Below the pieces are notes generated by a model. It worked only from the letters and a program-made list of their open reading frames with translations, was not told the DNA's origin and searched no databases. From a virus (taxonomy: Duplodnaviria; Caudoviricetes): DNA of 64,000 bases. The stretch lies in the IMG/VR virus record IMGVR_UViG_3300003962_000006, positions 48,181 through 112,180 of that record; one strand, written 5' to 3'. Positions within the stretch are counted from its first letter, which is position 1; each line of letters starts with the position of its first letter. This document shows, piece after piece, positions 4,313 to 32,496 of the stretch. The translations under genes were made by a program, and so were the position numbers.

Positions 4313-5458
4313 ATGGAAATTACCAAAGGCAATAACTTTCTTAATTCAAGATCAATTTTTATTGAAAGAAAAAAATACGATGAGTTATTTCCTGAAAGCG
4401 TTATTCGCAAGATTGACCTTTGGGATGAAAAAACCCTCTTTGGAAAGGTGGATAGATTTAACAATCCAATCATTCTAAAAAATCAAATGGTTCGGCAAAT
4501 TTCGGTGGATAATAATGTTTATGCGGTCAATTTTCTTGCTGATGCCTTTTTTCAAATAAAAAGAGAATTTAAGGAAAAAGAAAGAAGAAGGCGAATAAAT
4601 CTTGATGGTTCTGTGTTCACTGATTTGGAACCCAAAAAAGGTTTCATAAGTGTTGAAGCGGAATACTCAAAATTTTTAAATCTCCTTTATTCTTCTTTTG
4701 GAACATTTCTTCAACAAAACCAAAATTACCAAAGGCTTGTTGATTTTTCTTCATTTTTTATTCTTTTTAAAGAATTTCTAACAAACCTGTCTAATGGTTT
4801 ATTTTTTACAAAATCTTCTTTTATCTTATCAAAGCACTGCTCTCCGTTATGTTCCGGGTTGATGTTGGAAATTTCAAACAATTCTCATTCGCAGGACGAA
4901 GAAAAAGTTAAAAAATTTATAAACGATAGAAATTTCAACTTTTATCAAAAGACGGCGAAAAAATACGGATTTTATCTTGATAAAAATGCTCCTTGGCGAT
5001 TGATTGCGAATGTTAATTCTCCGCAGATGAAGGAGTTTATGATAAAGTTCGGGTTCAAAGATAAAGACGACCTTTTTGATAGAGGTTACGAGAAAACATC
5101 TCAAAACGAATTTCAGCAAATAAAAGAAATTATGGTCCGTTTTTATAATTCTTATGTTTTCGCAAATCCAATTTTAGTTGTGCGAAAAAGAAAGTGTGCT
5201 GAAAAAATTTTAAGACAAACAATAAACCTTGATGATGTTGAAAAATTGATTAATAAAAATTCTTTGATTTCATTTTACGCTTGGCTTAAATCCAAGGAAA
5301 GTGTATCATTAGGCACGATAAACATTGAAAACCTTGATGGAGTTATTGAGAAATCAATTTCAATAGCAAGCGTCTTGGGCGAAGAAAAAGCAATTGCTTT
5401 TATTAACTCTCAATACAAAGTTTCAACGGAGCAAAGAGATGCTGGTTCAGGTTCTTGA
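4313..5458 (+). CDS. hypothetical protein
   Basis: 381-aa ORF, no recognised motif. Confidence 0.6.
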   Translation: MEITKGNNFLNSRSIFIERKKYDELFPESVIRKIDLWDEKTLFGKVDRFNNPIILKNQMVRQISVDNNVYAVNFLADAFFQIKREFKEKERRRRINLDGSVFTDLEPKKGFISVEAEYSKFLNLLYSSFGTFLQQNQNYQRLVDFSSFFILFKEFLTNLSNGLFFTKSSFILSKHCSPLCSGLMLEISNNSHSQDEEKVKKFINDRNFNFYQKTAKKYGFYLDKNAPWRLIANVNSPQMKEFMIKFGFKDKDDLFDRGYEKTSQNEFQQIKEIMVRFYNSYVFANPILVVRKRKCAEKILRQTINLDDVEKLINKNSLISFYAWLKSKESVSLGTINIENLDGVIEKSISIASVLGEEKAIAFINSQYKVSTEQRDAGSGS

Positions 5459-8400: not shown

Positions 8401-8688
8401 ATGGTTAAAAAAGAAGAAAAAGAAGGGAAAAAGAATTTAGGCAAACTTTCTATTGCGGAAATACAAAAACTTATCAACAAACAGGCCGCCGGGACCGTTT
8501 CATTTAATTTGAAGGATGATGACCCCGCAAGCGTTGTCGATTGGATTCCAACAGGAGCGGATTGGCTTGATTGTATCATCTGCAAAGGAAAGCGAGCAGG
8601 AATTCCTGTCGGCCGGGTTTCCGAGTTGGCGGGTGAGAGTGCCTGTGTTACAGAGGATACTGAAATTGAGGTTGAGATTAGCGATTGA
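8401..8688 (+). CDS. recA: RecA/UvsX N-fragment fused to a 14-aa split-intein N-part (8644-8685)
   Basis: 'WIPTG..LD...GIPVGRVSELAGESA' followed by CVTEDTEIEVEISD-stop; Walker A is completed by SGKS in the 9829 ORF. Confidence 0.9.
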   Translation: MVKKEEKEGKKNLGKLSIAEIQKLINKQAAGTVSFNLKDDDPASVVDWIPTGADWLDCIICKGKRAGIPVGRVSELAGESACVTEDTEIEVEISD

Positions 8689-8710
8689 CTTTCCCCGCTA
8701 TTTAGGTATT

Positions 8711-9832
8711 ATGACCGATTTAAATAAATTAACAAATGAAGTTGGAGATGCTCTCTCTATCGATAAATTTAAAAAAAATGAAAATGTGATAAAAATGATT
8801 GAAAGTGGGTGTAATTGGCGAGAAATAGAAAAGACATACGGATTATCGTATAGTTCTATTGGTAAAATTGCTAAAAAATTTAATTTATTGGATAAATTCA
8901 AACAAAACAACAATAAAACAAATCCCCGCTTGTCTGGCGATGAACACCCTCGCCGCAAATCTTCTATTTTACGCTACGAAGCGTTTAATTTGGAATGGGG
9001 TAAGATTATTGAAAGCGAGATAGAAAATGGTGCTAATTTGAGTTTATTAATAAAAAAAACAGGAGCAAAACTCACATTCTTAAGAAGATTTATTCAGTGG
9101 AAGGGCGATAAGTGGAAGCAAAAATTAAGCGTTAATAGTGAAATCATCATAAAGAAAAATGCTTTTGATAATTTAAAAAAAATAGAAAAATTATCAAATC
9201 ATTCTGTAAAGAAAATAGAAGATAAACACATAAAACTTTACAAAAAAATGTTAGAGCAAAATAAAACAAAATCACAAATCGTAAAAACATTTGTAAAAAA
9301 ATACAATTTCGGTCATAAAAAAGTTGAAGATTTAGCGGGACTTTATGGAAAACCAAACAAACAAAAACAATCAGGTAAAAATAACCCTATGTATGGTAAA
9401 AGTCCATCAATAAAGGCGGGAATAGGAACGAAAGGTTGGGTTATTAACAAAAAAGGTGAAAAAATCTTTTTTAGAAGTTCTTTGGAAATGAAGGTTTTTT
9501 TGTTTCTAATAGAAAATAATGTAGAATTTTTATTATCAAAACATAGGATAAATTATAAATTAAATAAAAAAGAAAGAACCTATTGTCCCGACATCGTAAT
9601 TGGTAATGTGATTTACGAAATTAAACCTAAACAGATGGTTTCTTTAAAAGAAAACCAAATAAAATTCAAAGCTTTGGAAAATTATTGTAAAAGATTTAAT
9701 TTAAAATGTGGTTTTTACACGGAAGAAGATTTTGACTACGTCTTGGACGCTGAAAAAATAGAAAAATTAATTTTAGAAGACAAAATTATTTTAGATAAAA
9801 AAAATAAAGAGAAAATATTGAGGAACTTATGA
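8711..9832 (+). mobile_element. free-standing homing endonuclease (NUMOD3 + TnsA-like PD-(D/E)XK) between recA halves
   Basis: 'GKNNPMYGK' NUMOD3 motif; 'FRSSLE...YCPD...YEIKP'; lies inside a fractured gene. Confidence 0.75.
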
Positions 9833-11121
9833 AAATAAAAATTAGTGAAATTAAAGGGTTGTTAAAGTCCGGGAAGAAAGTTAAAGTTAAATCTATTAAC
9901 GGAGAGTTTGTTGATGTTGTTAATTATTTCGAAAAAGGGATGCTCCCGACGTTTTTAATAAAATTAGAAAATGGGAATGAAATAAAAACCTCTTTGGAAC
10001 ATCGTTGTTTTTCTAAATCGGGCTGGATGAAAACTCGTGATTTAATTCCAGAAGAAACATCACTTCTTTGTGAAAATGGTGAATTTTCTTTGGTTAAATC
10101 TATCGTTGGACTAGGACAGCACAAAATAGTAGACATTGAAGTTAATCATCTCGAGCACGCTTATTTCGGTAACGGAATTCTAAACCACAATTCAGGTAAA
10201 TCCTATTTTGCTGCCCAAATTGCCGCGAACGCCCAAAAAAAGGGAATTAAGGTCATCTATTTTGATAGTGAAGCGTCAATTGATCGAGAATTTTGGGTTA
10301 ATTCAGGAGTAGACCTTGACGAAATTCTGTATCTTCAAGCAACAAGCGTCGAATTTGTTCTTGAGACCATAGAGACGCTCCTCACGACCGATGACCAGTA
10401 TCTTTTCATTTTGGACAGTCTTGCGATGACACCGACAAGAAAAGAGGAAGAGTCTTCTCAAGACTTCAACCCTCTTTCCTCTATGGCTGAAAAAGCAAGA
10501 ATTCTCTCTAAAGGTGTTCCAAAAATTATAACTCCTCTTATCAATAAGAAGGGAACATTTTTGGTTCTTAACCAATTGAAGACAAACATTGCTCGAACTC
10601 CCGCGGAGCAATTAACAACACCTTGGACAACACCAGGAGGAAAGACGCTAAACTATGCTTATTCTCTTCGCATCTGGCTCACCAAGCGAAAAGCGAAGGA
10701 TAGTTTCATTCTTGATGAGCACGAATACAAAATTGGGTCGGAGGTTAAAGCGAAACTTGAAAAATCCCGCTTTGGAACCGAAGGCCGCGAGTGCACCTTT
10801 AAAATCATCTGGGGCGATCAAAAGAACATAGGCGTGCAGAATGCGGAAAGCATTTTTCAAGCGATTAAAGGTTCTCCTAGGCTCTCTGGTGGGGCTGCTG
10901 GACGATGGACGGTTGTTGATGATAAAGGCAACGAGGTCAAATTCATGACGAGTGAATGGAATGATTTGTATAAAAACGATAAAAAGTTTAAAGCAATCAT
11001 CAATTCCATTCTTGAAGAAGAAGTCATCCAGAAATTCGAAACAAGAAGCGCAAAAGCCTCAACATTTTATGATGTTGACGGAGAAGGTGAAAAGAAGCTG
11101 GAAGAAGATTTTCTTGAATAA
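9829..11121 (+). CDS. recA: split-intein C-part (9829-10191, 121 aa) fused to RecA/UvsX C-fragment
   Basis: Block B 'TSLEH', block F 'IVDIEV', block G 'GILNHN|S'; then SGKS, 'YFDSE', 'ILDSLA', 'NQL', 'TPGG'. Confidence 0.9.
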   Translation: MKIKISEIKGLLKSGKKVKVKSINGEFVDVVNYFEKGMLPTFLIKLENGNEIKTSLEHRCFSKSGWMKTRDLIPEETSLLCENGEFSLVKSIVGLGQHKIVDIEVNHLEHAYFGNGILNHNSGKSYFAAQIAANAQKKGIKVIYFDSEASIDREFWVNSGVDLDEILYLQATSVEFVLETIETLLTTDDQYLFILDSLAMTPTRKEEESSQDFNPLSSMAEKARILSKGVPKIITPLINKKGTFLVLNQLKTNIARTPAEQLTTPWTTPGGKTLNYAYSLRIWLTKRKAKDSFILDEHEYKIGSEVKAKLEKSRFGTEGRECTFKIIWGDQKNIGVQNAESIFQAIKGSPRLSGGAAGRWTVVDDKGNEVKFMTSEWNDLYKNDKKFKAIINSILEEEVIQKFETRSAKASTFYDVDGEGEKKLEEDFLE

Positions 11122-13022: not shown

Positions 13023-15497
13023 ATGGAACAAAACAACAAAATAACATTTGAACAATTCGGACATTCTTTTCAAGAAAAATTGGTCGCATCTCTTATCAAA
13101 GAGAAAGAATTTGCTGACCGAATGATGGAAGTTCTCAATCCACAATACCTCGCAAGAGATTATCTTAAAGAGATTGTTTCCATCGTTTTTGATTATCACG
13201 GGAAGTATAAATCCTATCCATCTCTTGAAACGCTCTCGACCATCTTAAAAACAACCGAGGGCGGTGGCGAAGAGCGTCTTTTTTCAATAACTTTTGTTGA
13301 TAATGTTCGACAAGGCAAAGTTTCTCTTGAAGACATTGACTTTGTCAAGACCCAATCGCTTGATTTTTGCCGAAAACAAAAACTAAACGAGGCAATGCTT
13401 CGCTCCATTAAATTATTAAAAAATTGCTCTTTTGAAGAAATCAAAAAAGTTATTGATGATGCCGTTAAACTTGGCGCCGAAAGAGACTTTGGAACAGACT
13501 ATCATGACGATTTCGAAATGCGTTATACCTCTGGAGAAGCCCGTAAAACAATTCCGACAGGTTGGGAACACATCGACAGAATAACTCAAGGTGGCCTTGG
13601 AAGAAAAGAGATAGGTGTCGTTATGGCTCCGACAGGTTGTCATGCGAAGGGAACATCAATTCTCATGTTTGATGGGAAATTGAAAAATGTTGAAAATGTT
13701 AAGGTTGGTGATAGGCTGATGGGCCCAGATTCTCAACCTAGAGAAGTTCTGCGATTAATTCAAGGAAGAGAGCAAATGTATAAAATTACACCGCATCGAG
13801 GTGGAGAACCATTCATTGTTAATGAAAATCACATTTTGTCTCTTAAAAGAACTAATGATGGCGTCAAAAGCAAACAATTTATAGAAATTTCCGTAAAAGA
13901 TTATCTATTAAAAAGTAAAACATTTAAACATGTTTATAAACTTCACAGAGCCGGTGTTGAGTTCGCCGAGACCGATAAGAAATTGCCTATTGCCCCATAC
14001 ATGCTTGGTCTTATCTTAGGAGACGGTCATCTTGCGACTTCGAGACATGTAGGTATAACTTCTTGTGACAAAGAAATTAAAGATTATGTTGTCAACTATG
14101 TTCAACAAAGGGAAAACAAACTAACATTAAAAAGTTATTCTAAAAAAACAAATGAAAACATTTTTGACATGAGAATTTGTAGAAACCAGAAGAAGCAAAA
14201 ATGGAAACGAGAACCAAGTTTCTTATTTAAAAGAATAATGACATTAGGACTCGAAAGAACGAGGTCGGGAAACAAGTTTGTTCCTGATGTTTATAAAACA
14301 TCTTCGAGAAAAAATAGGCTGGAAATGCTTGCTGGTTTGATTGACACCGATAGTCATCTTAGTAAAGGAGGTTGTTTTGAGTTTTGCTCTAAATCTAAGC
14401 AACTTGCTGATGATTTTGATTTTCTGGCGCGCAGTCTTGGTTTTACTTCTTCGCAAAGGTCCAAAATTGTTAATAAAACAACTTACTATGTTTGTGTTTT
14501 GAGCGGGGATTTATCTTTGATTCCAACAAAAATTGCTCGCAAGAAAGGCGACATTAGGAGACAAAAGAAAAATCATTTAGTTTCTGGATTTACAGTAGAA
14601 GAAGTAGGAGTTGATGATTTTTATGGCTTCACTATCGATAAAGATCACCTGTATCTTACCGGTGATTTTACAGTTCATCACAATTGTGGCAAATCGTTTA
14701 CGCTGACAAACATGGCTTCTCACGCGATCAAGCAAGGCTTTAATGTTATGTTCTTTTCTCTTGAATTGAGCGAAAACATTATTCACAAGCGCGTTGATTC
14801 ACGATTAACTGAAATTGAAATTGACGAACTTGATAATAATAAAGACAAGGTTCGGGAAGTTGAAAAAGCAATTCCCGGGACACTTAAGGTTAAGTGGTTT
14901 CCAAAGAAATCCGCTTCGGTTGATAGATTGCGAATGTTCCTTGATAAAATGAAGGAAACATCAGGGTTTGTTCCTGATGTCATCATGGTTGATTATGCGG
15001 ACATTATGAAGCCCGCTTTCAACAATCCGGAGAAACGGCATGGAATTGAAGGGATTTATGAAGACTTGGAAGCAATGGCGCAAGAACTTGATTGTGCTCT
15101 TTGGACGTGCTCTCAAACAAATCGTGGAGGAACCCAAAAAGAATTCGTGGAACTCGACTCAACCTCCGAGGCCTTTGCAAAATGTTTCGGAGCCTATCTT
15201 ATCCTGACGCTTCAACGGTCTCCCGAAGACAAGGTCGCGAATACAGGAAAGATGTTTGTCGCCAAGAACCGAAATGGTCCGGACGGGTTGTTATTCTCGT
15301 GCTTTATCGATACAGGAAAAGGAAGAATTGATGTCCTCCGACAAATCATCAAAAATGATGGAGGCATAACCAACCCGAGCGGCTCCGGAACGCCTTTTAA
15401 TGGAGATGAAAAATCTTTGGAGGTCTTGTTGGGGCAGAACAAAATAAATCTTGGCAGTTTCTTGGGCGGAAATAAAATGAAAAAGGTTGCGGAATAG
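13023..15497 (+). CDS. dnaB: replicative DNA helicase (DnaB/gp41-like) containing an intein
   Basis: Walker A APTG|CGKS split by intein; 'FSLEL', 'VDYAD', 'SQTNR', 'KNRNG'. Confidence 0.9.
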   Translation: MEQNNKITFEQFGHSFQEKLVASLIKEKEFADRMMEVLNPQYLARDYLKEIVSIVFDYHGKYKSYPSLETLSTILKTTEGGGEERLFSITFVDNVRQGKVSLEDIDFVKTQSLDFCRKQKLNEAMLRSIKLLKNCSFEEIKKVIDDAVKLGAERDFGTDYHDDFEMRYTSGEARKTIPTGWEHIDRITQGGLGRKEIGVVMAPTGCHAKGTSILMFDGKLKNVENVKVGDRLMGPDSQPREVLRLIQGREQMYKITPHRGGEPFIVNENHILSLKRTNDGVKSKQFIEISVKDYLLKSKTFKHVYKLHRAGVEFAETDKKLPIAPYMLGLILGDGHLATSRHVGITSCDKEIKDYVVNYVQQRENKLTLKSYSKKTNENIFDMRICRNQKKQKWKREPSFLFKRIMTLGLERTRSGNKFVPDVYKTSSRKNRLEMLAGLIDTDSHLSKGGCFEFCSKSKQLADDFDFLARSLGFTSSQRSKIVNKTTYYVCVLSGDLSLIPTKIARKKGDIRRQKKNHLVSGFTVEEVGVDDFYGFTIDKDHLYLTGDFTVHHNCGKSFTLTNMASHAIKQGFNVMFFSLELSENIIHKRVDSRLTEIEIDELDNNKDKVREVEKAIPGTLKVKWFPKKSASVDRLRMFLDKMKETSGFVPDVIMVDYADIMKPAFNNPEKRHGIEGIYEDLEAMAQELDCALWTCSQTNRGGTQKEFVELDSTSEAFAKCFGAYLILTLQRSPEDKVANTGKMFVAKNRNGPDGLLFSCFIDTGKGRIDVLRQIIKNDGGITNPSGSGTPFNGDEKSLEVLLGQNKINLGSFLGGNKMKKVAE
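13638..14684 (+). mobile_element. cis intein with LAGLIDADG endonuclease (349 aa)
   Basis: Starts CHAKGT, ends VHHN|C; 'LGLILGDG' and 'LAGLIDTDS'. Confidence 0.9.
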
Positions 15498-16917: not shown

Positions 16918-19845
16918 ATGACAAAAACTCTTGATGCTTCACAAAAAATTCTATCGGACATTATCATCTTTATGAAGTACGCCAAGCATCTTCCACATCT
17001 CAATCGAAGAGAAAATTGGGAAGAACTTATCGATAGAAACAAAGGTATGCACCTTAAGAAATTTCCGGAACACCAAAAAGAAATAGAAGATGCTTACAAA
17101 TTTGTTTATGATAAAAAAATTCTCCCCTCGATGAGAATGCTTCAATTTTCAGGAAAGCCAATCGAGATAAACAATACTCGCGGTTATAATTGTTGCTTCT
17201 TGCCTGTCGATGACTGGCGAGCGTTTTCGGAGATTATGTTTCTTCTTCTTGGTGGAACCGGCGTAGGTTTTTCGGTTCAATCTCACGACATTGAAAAGTT
17301 GCCTGAAATAAATAAACCAAACCCAAATCACAAAAGAAGATACCTCGTCGGGGATAGCATCGAAGGTTGGGCAGACGCTGTCAAAGTTCTTATGAAATCT
17401 TATTTTTTTGGTGGCTCAACCATTAATTTTGATTTTAACGACATTCGTCAAAAAGGCGCTCGTCTTCTAACCTCCGGAGGAAAGGCTCCCGGACCAGATC
17501 CGCTAAAAATGTGCCTTCTTCGAATAACATCTATTCTTGATGCTAAACAAAATGGAGATAAACTTTCTTCTTTGGAAGTCCACGACATTATTTGCTTCAT
17601 TGCTGATGCGGTTCTTGCTGGAGGCATTCGCCGAGCGGCGCTCATTTCGCTCTTTTCTGCGGATGACGAAAAGATGCTTTCCGCGAAGACGGGAAATTGG
17701 TGGGAATTAAATCCGCAACGTGGAAGAGCAAATAATTCCGCAGTTCTCTTAAGACATAAGATTACAAAAGATTTCTTTATGAATTTGTGGAAGACAATTG
17801 AGTTTTCTAACGCGGGCGAGCCGGGGTTCTTCTTTTTAAATGAAAAAGAACATGGGACAAACCCCTCTTTGAGAAAAGGGACAAAAGTTATGACCTCAAC
17901 AGGTATTTTTCCTATTGAAGATCTGGAAGGAAAAGAATTCATCGTTAAAAATTTAAATGGGGAAGAAAGCAAAGCAAAATGCTTCTTGTCAGGAAAAAAC
18001 AAGACTTTATACAAAATAACTCTTGCGAGTGGTTTTTCTTATTTCTCAACAGCAGAGCATAAGTGGCCCGTTTTGGATGAAAAAAGTGGAAACTTTGTTA
18101 AGGTTGAAACTACGGAATTGAAAGTTGGTGATAGATTTCCAATTCTCAAACAAAAGAAATTATTTGATGGAAAAATTGGAGATTATGAAGACGGATTTTT
18201 TGCTGGATGGCTCACTGGTGATGGTTGGATTACGATACGAGGGGATAATGGAGCAATTCAGCATGGGATGGTTGTTTCCGATAAAGATGCTCTTTCTGGA
18301 ATAGATAAAAAATTAGAAAATTACCTTACGTCTAAAGGAAGCAACGCGAAGTTTCAACAGAGAGATAATGGGACAAAAGAGGTTAATACCCAATCAAGAT
18401 CTTTGAATGAAAATACTGATAAACTTGGTATTAAAAATAAAAAAGAAGGCATCCCAACAATTATTTGGAATAAAGCCACCGAAGATTTTCGTAAAGGTTT
18501 TATTGATGGGTTGTATAGTTCTGACGGCTCTGTCGAGAAAAAGACAAAAAATTCAAACGGGAGAATTTGTCTTTCATCGGCTCATAAAAAACTGCTTGAA
18601 GATGTCGGAGAGATGTTAGGCTTCTATGGAATAAAAACAACTATTCATTCAAGAAAAACATTATTGAATGGAAAATACTTTGATTATCATCATTTAAGAA
18701 TAAGTGATAATGCGTCTAAAAAACATTTTAGAGATACTTTTAAATTAACACACAAAGATAAACAACAAAGAATTGATGAAATGGTTTTTAGAGAGAAATA
18801 CAAAAACTCCAATACCATCAAAATTAAAAGTATAGAAAAAACAGAAATTAAAGAAGATGTTTGGGACATTTCCGTTTTTGATAAAACACATTGTTTCCAG
18901 ATTTCACACTGCATAACTGGAAATTGTGGCGAAATTCTTTTAAAACCTTTCCAATTCTGCAACCTTGTCGAAATTAACGCAAGCGACCTTGAAAGTCAGC
19001 AAGACTTCGAAAACCGCGTCAGAGCTGCAACAATCCTCGGAACGCTTCAAGCAAGCTATACGGACTTTCACTACCTCCGTCCAATTTGGAGAAAGACAAC
19101 CGAGAAAGAGGCTCTTATTGGCATCGGCATGACCGGCATCGCATCTGGAAAAGTTCTCGAATTGGACATGACCAAAGCTTCCAAGATTGCTCTTCAAGAA
19201 AACGAAAGATTTGCGAAACTCTTGGGAATAAACAAGGCAGCGAGATTGACTTGTGTCAAGCCTGCTGGAACCACTTCTTGCGTTCTCGGAACCTCGTCCG
19301 GGATACACGCCTGGCATGCGAAGTTCTATCTTCGTCGAATGAGGGTTGGCAAGAACGAAGCAATTTATTCTTATCTCTTAAAGAACCATCCTGAAATCTT
19401 GGAAGATGATTATTTTCGCCCCCACGACACAGCCATCATAGCGTTGCCTCAAAGGGCCCCAGAAGGGGCTATAACGCGCGATGAGAGCGCCCTTGACCTT
19501 CTGGCTAGGGTCAAGAAAGTCTCGCTAGAATGGGTCATTCCGGGGTCGAGGCCAAGCAAAGGCAACCATAATGTCTCCGCAACCATAACGATTGACAAAG
19601 GTGAATGGGAAGAGGTTGGGGAATGGATGTGGAACAATAAAGAAACTTATTCGGGGCTATCGGTCCTTCCAAAGGATTACGGGAGTTACGTTCAGCCGCC
19701 TTTTGAAGACATAACCGAAGAGAAGTATCACGAACTTTTCGCAAGGTTGCATGAGGTTAATTTGGATAATGTGGTTGAAATTGAAGATGAAACCGATTTG
19801 AAGGGCGAGGTTGCTTGCGCAGGAGGCGCTTGTGAAATAAAGTAA
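16918..19845 (+). CDS. nrdJ: class II (B12-dependent) ribonucleotide reductase containing an intein
   Basis: 'YNC', 'GTGVGFSV', 'GGIRRAA', TNP|CGE, 'VKPAGT', C-terminal 'CAGGAC'. Confidence 0.9.
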   Translation: MTKTLDASQKILSDIIIFMKYAKHLPHLNRRENWEELIDRNKGMHLKKFPEHQKEIEDAYKFVYDKKILPSMRMLQFSGKPIEINNTRGYNCCFLPVDDWRAFSEIMFLLLGGTGVGFSVQSHDIEKLPEINKPNPNHKRRYLVGDSIEGWADAVKVLMKSYFFGGSTINFDFNDIRQKGARLLTSGGKAPGPDPLKMCLLRITSILDAKQNGDKLSSLEVHDIICFIADAVLAGGIRRAALISLFSADDEKMLSAKTGNWWELNPQRGRANNSAVLLRHKITKDFFMNLWKTIEFSNAGEPGFFFLNEKEHGTNPSLRKGTKVMTSTGIFPIEDLEGKEFIVKNLNGEESKAKCFLSGKNKTLYKITLASGFSYFSTAEHKWPVLDEKSGNFVKVETTELKVGDRFPILKQKKLFDGKIGDYEDGFFAGWLTGDGWITIRGDNGAIQHGMVVSDKDALSGIDKKLENYLTSKGSNAKFQQRDNGTKEVNTQSRSLNENTDKLGIKNKKEGIPTIIWNKATEDFRKGFIDGLYSSDGSVEKKTKNSNGRICLSSAHKKLLEDVGEMLGFYGIKTTIHSRKTLLNGKYFDYHHLRISDNASKKHFRDTFKLTHKDKQQRIDEMVFREKYKNSNTIKIKSIEKTEIKEDVWDISVFDKTHCFQISHCITGNCGEILLKPFQFCNLVEINASDLESQQDFENRVRAATILGTLQASYTDFHYLRPIWRKTTEKEALIGIGMTGIASGKVLELDMTKASKIALQENERFAKLLGINKAARLTCVKPAGTTSCVLGTSSGIHAWHAKFYLRRMRVGKNEAIYSYLLKNHPEILEDDYFRPHDTAIIALPQRAPEGAITRDESALDLLARVKKVSLEWVIPGSRPSKGNHNVSATITIDKGEWEEVGEWMWNNKETYSGLSVLPKDYGSYVQPPFEDITEEKYHELFARLHEVNLDNVVEIEDETDLKGEVACAGGACEIK
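17866..18924 (+). mobile_element. cis intein with LAGLIDADG endonuclease (353 aa, Ser1, ends TGN)
   Basis: Inserted between TNP and the catalytic CGE; 'STAEH', 'GWLTGDG', 'GFIDGLYSSDG'. Confidence 0.88.
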
Positions 19846-26261: not shown

Positions 26262-27776
26262 ATGACAGACAGAAAAACAAGCAAACTTAACTTTATAGGA
26301 TTGCACGCACACTCGGGATTCAGTGTTTACGATGGACTTGGAATGCCCGCGGAGCACATGAATTTTGCGCATTATAACGGAATGGATGCGCTCGCTCTAA
26401 CCGACCACGGGCACATGAATGGGTTTGCTTACCAACTGCTTCATTCCAAAGAGATGAAGAAAAAAGGCAAATCCTTTAAGCCAATTTTCGGCAACGAGAT
26501 GTATTTTATCGAGTCTTTCAAGGACTGGACGAAAATTTATCAAGAAGATAAATTAAACGCAAAAAATAAAGTTGATGATGAAATCGGCCTTGTCGCAGAA
26601 AATGAACAAGAAACGAAGAGTTTAACAAAATCTCAAATCAATAAGCGAAGCCATTTGGTTGTTCTTGCGCAAAATCAAGAAGGTTTAACAAACCTTTTTC
26701 ATTTGACCTCCAAATCTTACAATAAAGAGAATTTCTATCGCTTTCCGCGAGTTGATTTCGAACTTCTTCGGGAGCACAACAAGGGGTTGATTATTTCAAA
26801 CGCTTGCCTTGGAGGAACCCTCGCAAAAGCCTATTGGGAGAACCGCGAAAAAGGCGAGTCATTTGTTCTCGACGAGATGAGAAGAATTATCCAGAGGTTT
26901 GGCGACATCTTTGATGACCGCTTCTATGGTGAAATTCAATTTAATTCCGCTCCGGAGCAGCACGATGTAAATCAATACATTCTTCAATTATCCCGTGAAA
27001 TGGGATTTAAGGTCATCGCCACGGCGGATAGTCACTATCCAAACCCAGACCTTTGGAAAAGCCGGGAATTATACAAAAGATTAAACCCTAAATTTGTGAA
27101 AAGTGAAGAAAAATTGCCTGGCTCTGTTGATGAAATCGGGTATGAATTATACCCCAAAAATGGCGATGAAATGTTTGAAGCCTTTAAGAAATACTCCCAA
27201 CTTTGCGGAGAAGAGTACAACTCAAAAGAGATAATTTCAGCTATAGAAGAGACACACCGAATTGCTTTTGAGAGAATTGAGGATTTCTCTCCTGATAGTT
27301 CAATTAAACTTCCGTCTTTCATTATTCCTCCTGGAGAAGACCCTGATGAAATCTTGCGGAAAAAAGCATTTGAGGGTTTAAAGAGGTTAGGATTGGATAA
27401 GAACCCGGATTATGTTTCCAGATTAGAAAACGAGATTGATGTCGTCTCCTCGCAGAAATTTTCAAAATACTTCTTAACGATGGAAAAGATTATTGAAATT
27501 GCGAAAGAAGACCAACTTATCGGGCCTGCGCGAGGATGTTTTGTTGGGGATACAAAAGTTAAGACATCATCCGGCCCGAAACCCATTCAGGACCTTTCCA
27601 AAGAGGATGTCGTTTTTGATAAAGAAGGAAAAGAACAAAAAGTTCTTGGGGTGATGAATTATGATGTTGAAGAAGAAATCATAAAACTTGACTTTCTTGA
27701 TGGAACCTCGGTAGAGTGTACCAAAGACCATAAGTTTCTCTCCGGAGATAAGATGGTAAAAGCGGAGGATTTGTGA
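26262..27776 (+). CDS. dnaE: DNA polymerase III alpha fragment 1 (PHP domain) + split-intein N-part 1 (27537-27773)
   Basis: 'LHAHS..S.YDG', 'ALTDHG', 'TADSHY'; GPARG|CFVGDT...CTKDH...KAEDL-stop. Confidence 0.92.
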   Translation: MTDRKTSKLNFIGLHAHSGFSVYDGLGMPAEHMNFAHYNGMDALALTDHGHMNGFAYQLLHSKEMKKKGKSFKPIFGNEMYFIESFKDWTKIYQEDKLNAKNKVDDEIGLVAENEQETKSLTKSQINKRSHLVVLAQNQEGLTNLFHLTSKSYNKENFYRFPRVDFELLREHNKGLIISNACLGGTLAKAYWENREKGESFVLDEMRRIIQRFGDIFDDRFYGEIQFNSAPEQHDVNQYILQLSREMGFKVIATADSHYPNPDLWKSRELYKRLNPKFVKSEEKLPGSVDEIGYELYPKNGDEMFEAFKKYSQLCGEEYNSKEIISAIEETHRIAFERIEDFSPDSSIKLPSFIIPPGEDPDEILRKKAFEGLKRLGLDKNPDYVSRLENEIDVVSSQKFSKYFLTMEKIIEIAKEDQLIGPARGCFVGDTKVKTSSGPKPIQDLSKEDVVFDKEGKEQKVLGVMNYDVEEEIIKLDFLDGTSVECTKDHKFLSGDKMVKAEDL

Positions 27777-28003
27777 AGATTTTAGACCAAATTATTGACC
27801 CAGCAACTTTTATTTATTCTTTAGGTTGTTTTCTTTTTGCAATTTTTCTTTTATTTTTTGGTGTTTGGAAAACAATAAACGAAAAACCTTTGTCAACCCA
27901 AATAGATTGTCTCGAGAGAACCGAACGTCTTATTCGTTATGATAAAGCCACCGCCGAAGACTTAAAATTTTGTTATAATTTAAAGGATAAAAACGATGAA
28001 TAA
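27773..28003 (+). CDS. small membrane protein
   Basis: N-terminal hydrophobic helix. Confidence 0.55.
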   Translation: MKILDQIIDPATFIYSLGCFLFAIFLLFFGVWKTINEKPLSTQIDCLERTERLIRYDKATAEDLKFCYNLKDKNDE

Positions 28004-28301
28004 AAATGTTTTAACCACGATTTTGCTTGTATCTCTTTCTGGTTGTTGGCTCAAATGCGACGACGGTGATTATTCGTGCTTTGACCAATGTTTTGAAGAA
28101 TTAAGAGACGGGGAGTACTGCACAACGCTTTGCGAAAAAGAAGAGGAAGATGCTTCGGTCGAAGATGTCTCTTCTTTGGATGTCGAGGAGTTCGACGCGG
28201 TTTCGCAAGATGCTTATCGGCCTTCGCAATGTGAATTATCTTGCTATTCAAGATGCGAAATGGATACGCTATGCCGCTCAAGATGCGTCGAGGAATGTTA
28301 A
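27996..28301 (+). CDS. Cys-rich putative lipoprotein
   Basis: Lipobox-like 'LSGC'; CxxxC repeats; acidic linker. Confidence 0.55.
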   Translation: MNKNVLTTILLVSLSGCWLKCDDGDYSCFDQCFEELRDGEYCTTLCEKEEEDASVEDVSSLDVEEFDAVSQDAYRPSQCELSCYSRCEMDTLCRSRCVEEC

Positions 28302-28733
28302 ATGATTTGGTTTAATCCTAATGGAGAAATTCTTTGTTTTATAAATTTTCCTTGGTTTATAAATGTTGAAACTCAAGAAAAAGGATTGATTTACAAAAAA
28401 TTTGGTTATGTTTATGATAAACATTTTAATTCTATTTTGAAACTTGAAAAAGATTTTAAAATAGCAAACCAAAGTCGCTTAAAAAAACAAGCCGTTAAAC
28501 AATTTTTAATTGGAACAAAATAAATGTTTGTTTTTTGTGAAAAAGATCGAGATTATTGTTTTATACAATTTCTTATGTTTTGGAATTCAATAAGAATTTA
28601 TCTATCTTATGTCCCCTCGACAATTAATTTTAATCAAATTAGCAATTTAGTATTGAAATCAATTATTAAAAGAAATCCAAAGTTTCTCGAATTAAACAAA
28701 GAAAGAATAAAATTTTATGTCGCAAATCGTTAA
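28302..28733 (+). other. 2 divergent IKLFKxL-family small ORFs between dnaE fragments
   Basis: Size and composition match the family; ends VKQFLIGTK, IKFYVANR. Confidence 0.5.
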
Positions 28734-30390
28734 AAAAACTCTTAAATCCTTTAAAGGAAAAGTTTATGACATTTCAACTCCTTCCGGAAATTTTCAACTA
28801 GAAAACGGGCAGGTTGTTTCCAATTCCGCCGGTGGAAGCCTTCTATCTTATTGCCTTGGAATAACTCAAATTGACCCCTTGAAGTATGATTTATTGTTTG
28901 AGAGATTTTTAACTCGTGGCGCAACATCCTATCCCGACATTGATGTTGATTTTACAGACAACTTCGCATTAAAGCAAAAACTTGCTCAACTTTGGGGCGA
29001 AGAGTCGGTCATCGCAATCTCAAACATAAACACATTAAAATTCAGGTCTCTTATTAAAGATGTTTCCAAGTTCTTTGGTGTTCCTTTTGATGAAGTCAAT
29101 GCTATAACCAAGATAATGCTTGACGAAGCAATTCCGAAAGCCAAAGCAAAGCACCAAATAACGGCCGGTGTTTATGACCCGACCTATGAAGAATTGATTG
29201 AGTTTTCACCAAGTCTTCAACAATTCCTCAAAAAGTATCCAGATGTTGCAGAAAACATAAAAACCCTTCAAGGGCAGATAAAAGCAATTTCAAGACACGC
29301 TTCAGGTGTCCTTGTTTCGGACAATCTCTTTTCCAAGATGCCAGTCATCTCCTCTTCGGGTGTCCGACAGACGCCCTGGGGCGAAGGACAGACCGTAAGG
29401 CATCTGGAGCCTCTTGGGTTCATTAAATTTGACATCCTTGGGCTCACAACCCTTCAAATCATTCGAGGCGCCATAACGCGCGTGCTGCGTTTGGAGATGG
29501 GTCGCGAACCGACGCTTCAAGAGGTTTCCAAATTCTACGATGAGCGATTGCATCCAGATAGAATTGATTTAAAGGACCAAAAGGTTTTTGAGAATGTTTT
29601 TCAGCAAGGAAATTGGGCAGCGACCTTTCAATTTGCTGAAAAAGGTGCGCAAGAATTTTGCATGAAGGTCAAGCCGAAGAGCATCGAAGAAATCACAGCA
29701 ATAACATCAATCTACCGGCCCGGAGCGATGAGTTCGGGGGTGCACCATGACTATGTCTCCGCAAAAGCCAATCCGGAAAACATAAAATACCTTCATCCAA
29801 TTTTGAAAGAGTTGCTTGAAAAAAATTATGGCTTTATTTTGTACCAAGAAGACCTTGCGAACATCGCGCACAAGCTTGGAAAAGACATCTCTCTGGAAGA
29901 GGGCAATTTGTTGAGAAAATTGCTTATCAAAAAGGGCCTCGGCGAGGTTGGCGGAAAGAAGCAGGTTATTCACGATAAGTTTCTTCAAGGTTGCCTGGAA
30001 AAAGGAATTGCCGAAGAGGATGCGGAAGACTTGTGGGAGAAGATGTCGGCATTTTCTACATACTCTTTTAATCGAACTGTTCATTTTGAAGAGATGGTAT
30101 CTACTTATACGAAAGAAGGTAATTTTCTTTGTGATAAAAAAATTATTGACGTAAAATCGGGAGATTTTGTTAGAAGTCGCAACGAAAAAAATAAAAAAGA
30201 TATTTTTACAAAAGTTGTAAAAAATCATTATCACGGAAAACTGCCTCTCGTAAAAATAACATTAAATGATGGAAAGACTATTAAATGCACGATGAATCAC
30301 AAATTTCGAACAACCTGCGGGCAGATGCTCCCATTAAAAACAATAATAGAGAGACAATTATCTATATTTGTGAGTGCGGGAAAGAAGTAA
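28717..30390 (+). CDS. dnaE: DnaE fragment 2: intein C-part 1 (28717-28824) + palm/fingers + intein N-part 2 (30076-30387)
   Basis: VYDIST...VVSN|SAGGS; catalytic 'PDIDVDF', 'KFDILGL'; YSFNR|TVHF...CTMNHKF. Confidence 0.92.
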   Translation: MSQIVKKTLKSFKGKVYDISTPSGNFQLENGQVVSNSAGGSLLSYCLGITQIDPLKYDLLFERFLTRGATSYPDIDVDFTDNFALKQKLAQLWGEESVIAISNINTLKFRSLIKDVSKFFGVPFDEVNAITKIMLDEAIPKAKAKHQITAGVYDPTYEELIEFSPSLQQFLKKYPDVAENIKTLQGQIKAISRHASGVLVSDNLFSKMPVISSSGVRQTPWGEGQTVRHLEPLGFIKFDILGLTTLQIIRGAITRVLRLEMGREPTLQEVSKFYDERLHPDRIDLKDQKVFENVFQQGNWAATFQFAEKGAQEFCMKVKPKSIEEITAITSIYRPGAMSSGVHHDYVSAKANPENIKYLHPILKELLEKNYGFILYQEDLANIAHKLGKDISLEEGNLLRKLLIKKGLGEVGGKKQVIHDKFLQGCLEKGIAEEDAEDLWEKMSAFSTYSFNRTVHFEEMVSTYTKEGNFLCDKKIIDVKSGDFVRSRNEKNKKDIFTKVVKNHYHGKLPLVKITLNDGKTIKCTMNHKFRTTCGQMLPLKTIIERQLSIFVSAGKK

Positions 30391-31532
30391 AATCTAATAC
30401 GTCTCTATACAGACACATATCGATTTGCGATAAAGGTAAATCATTATTATCGCAGTTGAATTTTGATAGGGAAAATAAAAAACTTCAAGAAAAAATTCTT
30501 ATTCATCTTTGCGGATGTGGGAAAAAAATTTTTAGTGAAGGAGAAGGTAGTCGACACAAAAGGCGGTGTTCTTTATTTTTTAAATTATCGAAAAATCTAG
30601 ATTTAGAAAAACAAATAGAAAATAAAAACATTTTGGATAAAAAAATAAAATGCGGTTTATGTAAATTTTATTCTTTTTCTCTTTTAAAGCATATAAAAGA
30701 AGAACACGCTTTATCTAAAGAACAGTATGAAGAGATACACGGACCCACCTTGAGCTAAATATCTTTTGATAAATATTCTTTTCAAAATAAAATAAATTTA
30801 GAAAATTGGGAAGAAAAATTTGAAAATAAAGGCGGAGATTTAAAGTTATTACGGCAAAAGATAGGAAAAAAAGTCAGCCAAACAATAATGAATGACCCGG
30901 CGGAGCGCCGCCGCCGGTCCAAACAACTTGGTATAATAAATGGCTCACCAAAATCGAGAGCGCTTTCGAGTGTGCGGGCTATAGATATTGCAAAAAGACC
31001 CGAAATCATAGAACAACGCTCTACTGTTTTAAAAAAATGGAGAGAAGATAATCCTGAAAAATTTCAAGAAATAGTTCAAAACCTTTCTCGCTCATTTCAT
31101 TCGAAAGGTGAAAAAAAATTGATTGAACTTTTGAAGATAAAGTTTCCATTGTTTTTTATAAAAAACAATTTCTTTTTGAAATCTAAAAATTTCACTCTCA
31201 ATAAAAGCCTTAGAAAGCAAATAGATGCTGTCATAGTTGACAAAAACATACTCATAGAGTATGATGGTGAAATACATTTTCGTCCGAGCCCACGAATCAA
31301 TTTAGATGAAATACGCGCAAAAGACAAAATGTTGAACGAATTTGTTGAAAACTCTAAAAAATATTCATTAATAAGAGTGTCGCACGACACGATTCAGTCT
31401 AAAAAAAATAGAGAAGAAAATGATTTTTTTGATTTTTTTAAGCAAGAAATTGAAAATGCTGTTTTAAACATAAAGCCGGGAGAAATTTATTTTATAGGAA
31501 AAAAATATGACAAGCAATATTTTGAAAATTGA
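30285..31532 (+). pseudogene. free-standing Vsr/DUF559-like homing endonuclease with Zn fingers, broken by one in-frame TAA (30756-30758)
   Basis: ORFs 30285 and 30888 are in the same frame with a single stop between them; 'SKGEKKL...IDAV...LIEYDGEIH'. Confidence 0.7.
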
Positions 31533-32496
31533 ATTTATTGAAGATGCGGACGCTTACGATTTGGAGGTTGAACACGAAGACCACCAGTATTATTTAGCGA
31601 ATGGTATTTTATCTTCCAATTCACACGCCGCCGCTTATAGCATACTTTCCTACATTTGCGCACACCTTTCAACATACCATCTTGATGCTTGGATTTGTTC
31701 TTATCTTGATGTTGAAGGCAACGCTGAGAAAGAAAGAGCGTTGAGCACCGCAAAAAGTCTCGGTTATTCCATTCTCAACCCTGACATAAACCATTCAGGC
31801 CTGACTTGGGAGGTTATTCCCGGAACCAAAAAATTAGCAACTCCTTTAAAAAACATTAAAGGTCTTGGCGATGTTGCGATTGAGCAAATAATCAACAATC
31901 GCCCATTTAAGACGATTGAAGAATTGCTCTTTAATGAAAAGATTTTGTATTCCAAACTTAATAAAAAAGGTTTTGATTGCCTCATCAAAACAGGTGCTCT
32001 ATCATCTCTTATGGATGCCCGTTTCAATCATTTAAGGCATTTCTGGCTTTCCTGTGTCGGCGAAGAGCGCCCGAAAACCTTGAAAAAGTTTCACGAGAAC
32101 ATTGAAAAGTTCAAGGAAGAAAAAGATTTCTCCCAAGAAGAGAAGTTCCAATTTTTTATTGAGCTTTCGGGGTATTACCCGATTGACCTTATCATAACTG
32201 AAAATCATAGAGCGAAACTTCAAAAGGTTGGCATCCCTCAAATAACAGAGCGAGGAGATAATAAGTTTTGTTGGTTTGTTATAAAAAATGTTGTTGAACG
32301 AACGACTGCGAAAGGAAAGCGATACATAGAGTTGAAAGTAACCGACGACAGCAACCAGGAGGTTGTGGTACGGTGTTGGAATACCGAAAACGAGCACATG
32401 CTTTATAAGCATCGTCTTTATGCTGCGTCGTTGGATTATGATGAAAAGTATGGCTACTCAACGAAAAACATTATCAAGAATTTCAAGATGTTATGA
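31507..32496 (+). CDS. dnaE: DnaE fragment 3: intein C-part 2 (31507-31620) + HhH/OB region
   Basis: AYDLEV...NGILSSN|SHAAAY; 'PDINHS', 'IKGLG', 'NRPF'. Confidence 0.92.
   Translation: MTSNILKIEFIEDADAYDLEVEHEDHQYYLANGILSSNSHAAAYSILSYICAHLSTYHLDAWICSYLDVEGNAEKERALSTAKSLGYSILNPDINHSGLTWEVIPGTKKLATPLKNIKGLGDVAIEQIINNRPFKTIEELLFNEKILYSKLNKKGFDCLIKTGALSSLMDARFNHLRHFWLSCVGEERPKTLKKFHENIEKFKEEKDFSQEEKFQFFIELSGYYPIDLIITENHRAKLQKVGIPQITERGDNKFCWFVIKNVVERTTAKGKRYIELKVTDDSNQEVVVRCWNTENEHMLYKHRLYAASLDYDEKYGYSTKNIIKNFKML

Follow-up and report, generated by a model that had tools for sequence, protein, structure and literature searches.

Opposite charge polarity of two split inteins in a three-piece phage dnaE gene: a probable lineage trait rather than an orthogonality code

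Fractured genes, as described in 2009 by Dassa, London, Stoddard, Schueler-Furman and Pietrokovski (PMC2677866), divide an essential replication enzyme (DnaE among them) over neighbouring open reading frames (ORFs) on one strand. A split-intein half forms the start or the end of each ORF, the interface strands of the two halves are complementary in charge, and the gap between them holds a homing-endonuclease gene that stands on its own. Natural split inteins show this complementarity in both polarities (PMC2677866), and the charge zipper of gp41-1 has the polarity opposite to that of Npu (10.1101/546465). The locus considered here shares these features and lies in 64,000 nt of viral DNA (IMGVR_UViG_3300003962_000006, positions 48,181-112,180), hereafter the window, to which coordinates refer unless a contig is named. 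A phage-type DNA polymerase III alpha (DnaE) is encoded by three same-strand ORFs (26262-27776, 28717-30390 and 31507-32496) with a split intein at each of the two breaks, and the endonuclease-like gene is present at split 2. The window differs from the published fractured genes in holding two complete split inteins in one gene, where the DnaE-1 locus of that paper has just a partial extra intein, and in having no recognisable endonuclease in the gap of split 1. A limited literature search, which does not prove absence, found no paper on natural genes with at least two split inteins.

Three further systems stand close to this locus. With the DnaE inteins of Npu and Ssp (PDB 4kl5, 2keq, 1zd7), intein 2 of the window shares the host protein, the motif G-Y-G-F-N-K-S-H and a penultimate Ser (ASN there, SSN here); it differs in its insertion at FNK/SH, 4 residues downstream of Y/CFNK (the slash marks the junction), in Ser instead of Cys at position +1, in Thr as the first residue, in halves that are adjacent in the genome instead of at distant loci, and in its reversed polarity in the window. 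With gp41-1 (Beyer, Iwai and co-workers; 10.1101/546465; PDB 6qaz) it shares a basic N-terminal and an acidic C-terminal half (N+/C-) and a zipper formed by the strand that precedes block B and the first strand of the C-terminal half (IntC); the sequence relation is weak (E = 3e-3), and intein 2 came to this polarity inside an Npu-like family, without descending from gp41-1. The third is the set of charge-swapped or otherwise orthogonal split inteins engineered for three-piece ligation (cited in 10.1101/546465; library in PMC7090010), which shares the idea that opposite charges can cut cross-reaction when two split inteins act on one product; those are designed constructs with measured specificity.

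The four intein halves of the window are given below, with net charge counted as K+R-D-E on the translated halves.

27537..27773, plus strand: IntN1, the N-terminal half of intein 1; 79 amino acids (aa), net charge -6; starts with CFVGD and has CTKDH as block B.
28717..28824, plus strand: IntC1, the C-terminal half of intein 1; 36 aa, net charge +3 (first 15 residues +5); ends in VSN, followed by Ser+1.
30076..30387, plus strand: IntN2, the N-terminal half of intein 2; 104 aa, net charge +11; starts with Thr (FNR/TVHF) and has CTMNH as block B.
31507..31620, plus strand: IntC2, the C-terminal half of intein 2; 38 aa, net charge -8; contains YDLEV..DHQ and ends in SSN, followed by Ser+1.

A sequence-only reading of this stretch had counted the same charges by hand (-6, +3, +11, -8) and had described intein 1 as N-/C+ and intein 2 as reversed, N+/C-; counts and coordinates match the translation exactly and the computed charges confirm the signs. 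Measured against same-length segments from the other proteins of the window, IntN1 lies at the 10th percentile and IntC1 at the 22nd from the top, IntN2 falls in the top 5% and IntC2 in the bottom 2%; the charges of intein 1 are unremarkable alone and those of intein 2 are moderately extreme. Within IntN2 the charge is spread unevenly (residues 1-37, -1; 38-66, +5; 67-100, +5; tail, +2), and just about half of the +11 sits in the interface segment whose charge covaries with that of IntC.

This segment was recognised in relatives of intein 2, collected by searches of viral and metagenome contigs (numbered L001, L002 and so on), which gave 27 distinct IntN/IntC pairs.

30187..30273, plus strand: IntN2 residues 38-66, a long beta-hairpin of net charge +5 that covaries with the IntC2 charge; the strand spans residues 42-63 in the model of a cis relative.

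Across the 27 pairs the charge of IntN residues 38-66 is strongly and inversely correlated with that of IntC (Spearman r = -0.90, p = 2e-10), and IntN residues 1-37 and 67-100 show no correlation with IntC charge. The relation holds in phylogenetic contrasts on an intein tree built without the charged segments (r = -0.77, p = 3e-6), in which the control segments are not significant; these continuous contrasts were used in place of a binary independent-pairs test, for which supported contrasts on the tree were few (one on starred branches, four overall). The covariation is also position-specific: the column pairs that swap sign are N60-C8 (r = -0.81), N55-C12 (-0.79) and N62-C5 (-0.76), and their position sums of 67-68 match an antiparallel ladder. 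At IntN 55, 60 and 62 the window has K55, K60 and T62 opposite D, E and L, and L002 has E, E and E opposite K, K and K. An effect of base composition is ruled out, because such a bias would shift both halves in the same way and not oppositely. The intein-2 family thus combines a complementary IntN strand before block B and first IntC strand with covariation between them, as expected of a charge zipper. There is good support for complementary charges inside each pair, in line with the published zipper or capture idea (PMC2677866; 10.1101/546465).

The sign of the zipper is not fixed in this family. Three members (L002, L005, L010) keep Npu-like N-/C+ charges, others are mixed with both halves net negative (L001, L009, L017), and a negative IntC has about four origins on the intein tree and is spread over at least 5 host lineages, which shows polarity to be labile within one Npu-like intein family. 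A plausible mechanism is that the long beta-hairpin towards the end of IntN lines up antiparallel to the first strand of IntC, opposite charges facing each other, and that this zipper would serve for electrostatic capture, a step put forward earlier for Npu DnaE and gp41-1. In the intein-2 family it would have drifted by compensatory swaps from an Npu-like N-/C+ state through mixed states to a gp41-1-like N+/C- state, with the window at the flipped extreme.

Intein 1 comes from a family of a different character. Its site-1 relatives have an acidic IntN and a basic IntC in 16 of the 17 other distinct members with both halves (IntN zone -3 to -13, IntC head +3 to +7). The sole exception is L075, in which both halves are flipped, with an IntN zone of +1 (the only non-acidic one of the family) and an IntC of -5; therefore the halves covary in the intein-1 family too. 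The two DnaE inteins of the window have just 25% identity in their N halves and 28% in their C halves. The explanation favoured here, taken as a whole and given a probability of roughly 0.7, is that the opposite polarity is an inherited lineage trait, a by-product of combining an intein from a family that is nearly always N-acidic/C-basic with one from a labile Npu-like family. Partner choice would then follow mainly from overall divergence, and like-charge repulsion between non-cognate halves would be at most an added margin; it may add some such margin in the window phage.

The strongest alternative is that polarity was itself selected as a code: acidic tags on the two outer fragments and two basic tags on the middle one would repel both wrong pairings, IntN1 with IntC2 (skipping of the catalytic fragment) and IntN2 with IntC1 (cyclisation of fragment 2). 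The sequence-only reading had proposed this; its premise that charge matters in cognate pairing is supported by the covariation in the 27 relatives, whereas a code against the two non-cognate pairings is poorly supported, given the counter-examples among relatives, and is considered unlikely. The sign pattern of the window is exactly the one such a code needs, IntC2 is negative in all three genomes split at both sites by these two families (window -8, L001 -6, L017 -5), and in L071, which has a different site-2 intein, the IntC is at -9. In addition, an engineered full charge swap of Npu is cited in 10.1101/546465 as having lowered cross-reactivity.

Double-split genes, however, do not require opposite polarity, nor is it confined to them. 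Reversed or negative-IntC forms of intein 2 occur without a split intein 1 (L006, L009, L046; cis forms in L038 and L058). Sets of co-resident split inteins with the same polarity are found in L063, L071, L066 and L061: L063 is split at the same two sites and both of its inteins are N-/C+ (site-2 zone -5, IntC +5), and in L071 the first two of three split inteins are both N-/C+ on either side of an extein of 30 residues, L066 and L061 being similar. In L071 and L066 a basic IntC1 and an acidic IntN sit on one fragment with just 30 extein residues. The double-split L001 and L017, broken at the same sites as the window, have a net-negative IntN2 beside a basic IntC1, and the cyclisation-blocking half of the code is absent from them. 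Sister comparisons on the DnaE extein tree (L017 vs L009; L071/L067 vs L077; L063 vs L109) show no shift of polarity with the presence of a split intein 1. With three or more split inteins a binary code is no longer sufficient, and the split intein in the UvsX gene of the window has the polarity of intein 1; opposite polarity also yields attractive but useless N-N and C-C combinations. Published tests of charge and specificity are mixed: 15 of 16 diverse split inteins are orthogonal without charge design (PMC7090010), and a beta3/beta6 charge swap alone left the cross-activity of Npu in place, although an engineered NpuDnaB pair did become orthogonal (10.1101/546465).

Several points weigh against polarity as an inherited by-product and against the zipper beneath it. 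In a raw Mann-Whitney comparison the IntN2 zone is less negative with than without a co-resident split intein 1 (p = 0.018), which favours a code; this association was rejected as evidence for it, as a lineage effect, after the extein-tree sister comparisons. The window is also the most extreme flip of its family, and its nearest intein relative on a weak tree, L049, is conventional and without intein 1. The same holds of L049 and L050 together (-8/-1), and it could mean that, once intein 1 had arrived, selection against both middle-fragment cyclisation and fragment skipping drove or strengthened the extreme flip of intein 2 (zone +5, IntC -8). That version is judged distinctly improbable; if true, it would be an example from nature of charge reversal that evolved to keep split inteins orthogonal. 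The intein tree is weakly resolved, with strong support on 1 of 24 branches, and the contrasts are approximate to that extent, and the zipper contacts are deduced from covariation and topology only. Finally, intein 1 is itself atypical: at 79 aa IntN1 is about 11-13 aa shorter than in 17 relatives (median 92 in 18 distinct relatives) and has lost the acidic C-terminal strand, and IntC1 ends in VSN where 16 of 16 relatives have VHN; the penultimate His is missing, as is the block-F His. Judged by these residues, it may splice poorly or rely on others.

Two weaker explanations concern charge as such. The charges could mainly keep the disordered, unpaired halves soluble and free of aggregation, in which case the sign would be irrelevant and sign pairing secondary. 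Such a role was proposed by the authors of 10.1101/546465 after a charge swap left Npu cross-activity unchanged, and the mixed states with two net-negative halves (L001, L009, L017) are compatible with it; solubility alone, however, predicts neither inverse covariation confined to one segment nor antiparallel sign swaps at specific positions, and is very doubtful as the main cause. Chance, by which Lys- and Glu-rich phage proteins would often yield segments of such net charge, fits the intein 1 values (10th and 22nd percentiles) and the negative IntC of about a quarter of the relatives' site-2 inteins, which makes an opposite pair not rare, but it is hardly credible given IntN2 in the top 5%, IntC2 in the bottom 2% and a family covariation (p = 2e-10, and 3e-6 after contrasts) that excludes it.

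The placement of intein 2 in an Npu-like family rests on several comparisons. By sequence, IntN2 comes nearest, among solved relatives, to the Npu DnaE intein (4lx3, E = 1e-8). The match to gp41-1 is much poorer (E = 3e-3), and an origin of intein 2 from the gp41-1 lineage was rejected on these values. The HINT fold was modelled with a natural cis (fused) relative of the intein-2 family from L058. In its AlphaFold model (predicted local distance difference test score, pLDDT, 91.6) residues 42-63 and 112-128 form long strands, the linker at the split point is disordered, and the best fold match is Npu DnaE 4kl5 (template modelling score, TM, 0.83-0.85); the reassembled halves of the family are accordingly predicted to take a HINT fold. 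The insertion lies 4 residues downstream of the cyanobacterial Y/CFNK site, and the window junction is FNR/SH with Ser at +1, not Y/CFNK with Cys at +1; from its sequence and position intein 2 is classed as a homologous intein of a different allele from Npu/Ssp DnaE. Its motifs are block B T72-M-N-H75, YDLEV...DHQ and SSN/S, with Thr at position 1. Across the family that position is Cys, Ser or Thr, with Thr in 3 of 27 distinct members (window, L004, L034), and because it is recurrent it is not a sequencing oddity. Intein 1 carries the class 1 HINT motifs C1, T62-K-D-H65, VYD and a terminal N36 followed by S.

Relatives of both inteins occur in other forms. A true cyanobacterial-type split DnaE intein is present at the canonical site in the viral contig L109 (2-3130, 4436-5773; KY/CLLYDTEILT ... 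IAKN/CFNKSH). Natural fused mini-inteins of the site-1 and site-2 families, with neither an endonuclease nor a split, are found at L038:3399-3767 and 4941-5375, at L058:5001-5435 and in L077, and would be useful as ancestral-like or re-fused states. At L008:7159-7956, as in L007 and L056, the IntN2 ORF continues for about 160 residues beyond the point where IntN normally stops; this extension is an acidic domain, after which the ORF overlaps that of IntC.

The host protein is divided over the three ORFs as follows.

26262..27776, plus strand: DnaE fragment 1 (extein residues 1-425), with the PHP domain and the beginning of pol III alpha, then IntN1; Pfam PHP 8e-32 and DNA_pol3_alpha; phrog_405 37-406.
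28717..30390, plus strand: DnaE fragment 2, with IntC1, the catalytic and finger domains (extein residues 37-453) and IntN2; Pfam DNA_pol3_alpha 4e-37 and finger domain 3e-34; phrog_405 407-793.
31507..32496, plus strand: DnaE fragment 3, with IntC2, then the HhH/OB C-terminal extein; Pfam HHH_6 2e-13; phrog_405 793-1050.

The coordinates of the phrog_405 (PHROG 405) profile are contiguous over the three exteins (37-406 / 407-793 / 793-1050), and intein-free relatives (L012-L014) are collinear through both junctions at 52-57% identity; therefore both interruptions are insertions and their boundaries are fixed, at GPARG/SAGGS (site 1) and FNR/SHAAAY (site 2). Removal of either intein restores a continuous, conserved host protein. 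Most likely, DnaE is made as three polypeptides that would be ligated by two unrelated split inteins, the splicing being read from these junctions and motifs.

The gaps between the fragments hold small genes.

27773..28733, plus strand: gap of split 1, with four small ORFs without family matches.
30285..30758, plus strand: orfZ in the gap of split 2; 157 aa, Cys/His-rich, with a weak ROS_MUCR match.
30888..31532, plus strand: orfH, a free-standing homing-endonuclease-like gene between IntN2 and IntC2; 214 aa; phrog_559 (HNH endonuclease, 1.7e-7) and phrog_9084 (homing endonuclease).

Pfam and PHROG searches of the split-1 gap returned no recognisable endonuclease and no family match for its four ORFs, and the free-standing endonuclease typical of fractured genes is accordingly seen at split 2 and not at split 1. 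The 3' end of orfH overlaps the start of DnaE fragment 3, and the gene is syntenic, at the same position, in more than 20 relatives; it has no Pfam match and no usable match to solved structures in a PDB sequence search, and it is not assignable to the Vsr-like/I-Bth0305I family. Partial homologues of orfZ lie in the same gap of L001, L009, L017 and L018.

The surroundings are a replication module of a large phage and include a UvsX-like recombinase, a DnaB-like helicase, a ribonucleotide reductase and GroEL. The UvsX/RecA-like recombinase (8401-8688, 9829-11121) is split by an atypical intein, with an acidic IntN of 14 aa and an IntC of about 121 aa that has a Lys-rich start and ends in NHN/SGKS, a polarity like that of intein 1; an endonuclease-like ORF (8516-9832) lies between its halves. 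The DnaB-like helicase (824 aa, 13023-15497) and ribonucleotide reductase (975 aa, 16918-19845) are oversized and have internal endonuclease/terminase PHROG matches, which suggests cis inteins in these further replication genes. Among the relatives, L071 divides DnaE (L071:4150-11061) over four ORFs, the three split inteins lying at sites 425, 455 and 842 (window extein numbering); the second fragment carries only about 30 extein residues between its IntC and IntN. Another break of dnaE recurs near extein residues 640-659 (L063:7186-8133; L065:8063-8943; L078:9188-10942, on a contig shared with L019), where an N-side tail of 20-45 aa and a C-side head of 10-16 aa fall short of the length of a complete intein and are similar to its first and last strands only; judging from this resemblance, they may be intein remnants serving as non-covalent docking pieces.

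In biological terms the finding is ordinary, as both polarities and the idea of charge complementarity were already published (2009, 2019); what is new is the quantitative covariation, the identity of the swapped positions and the occurrence of the flip inside an Npu-like family rather than in the gp41-1 lineage. Split inteins are widely used for protein ligation, and joining three pieces calls for pairs without cross-reaction. Together with its relatives the locus spans, in nature, the range from N-/C+ to N+/C- within one Npu-like family, the swapped positions being IntN 55, 60 and 62 against IntC 12, 8 and 5, and the natural three- and four-piece DnaE genes with same- or opposite-polarity inteins are ready test sets for the share of charge in partner choice.

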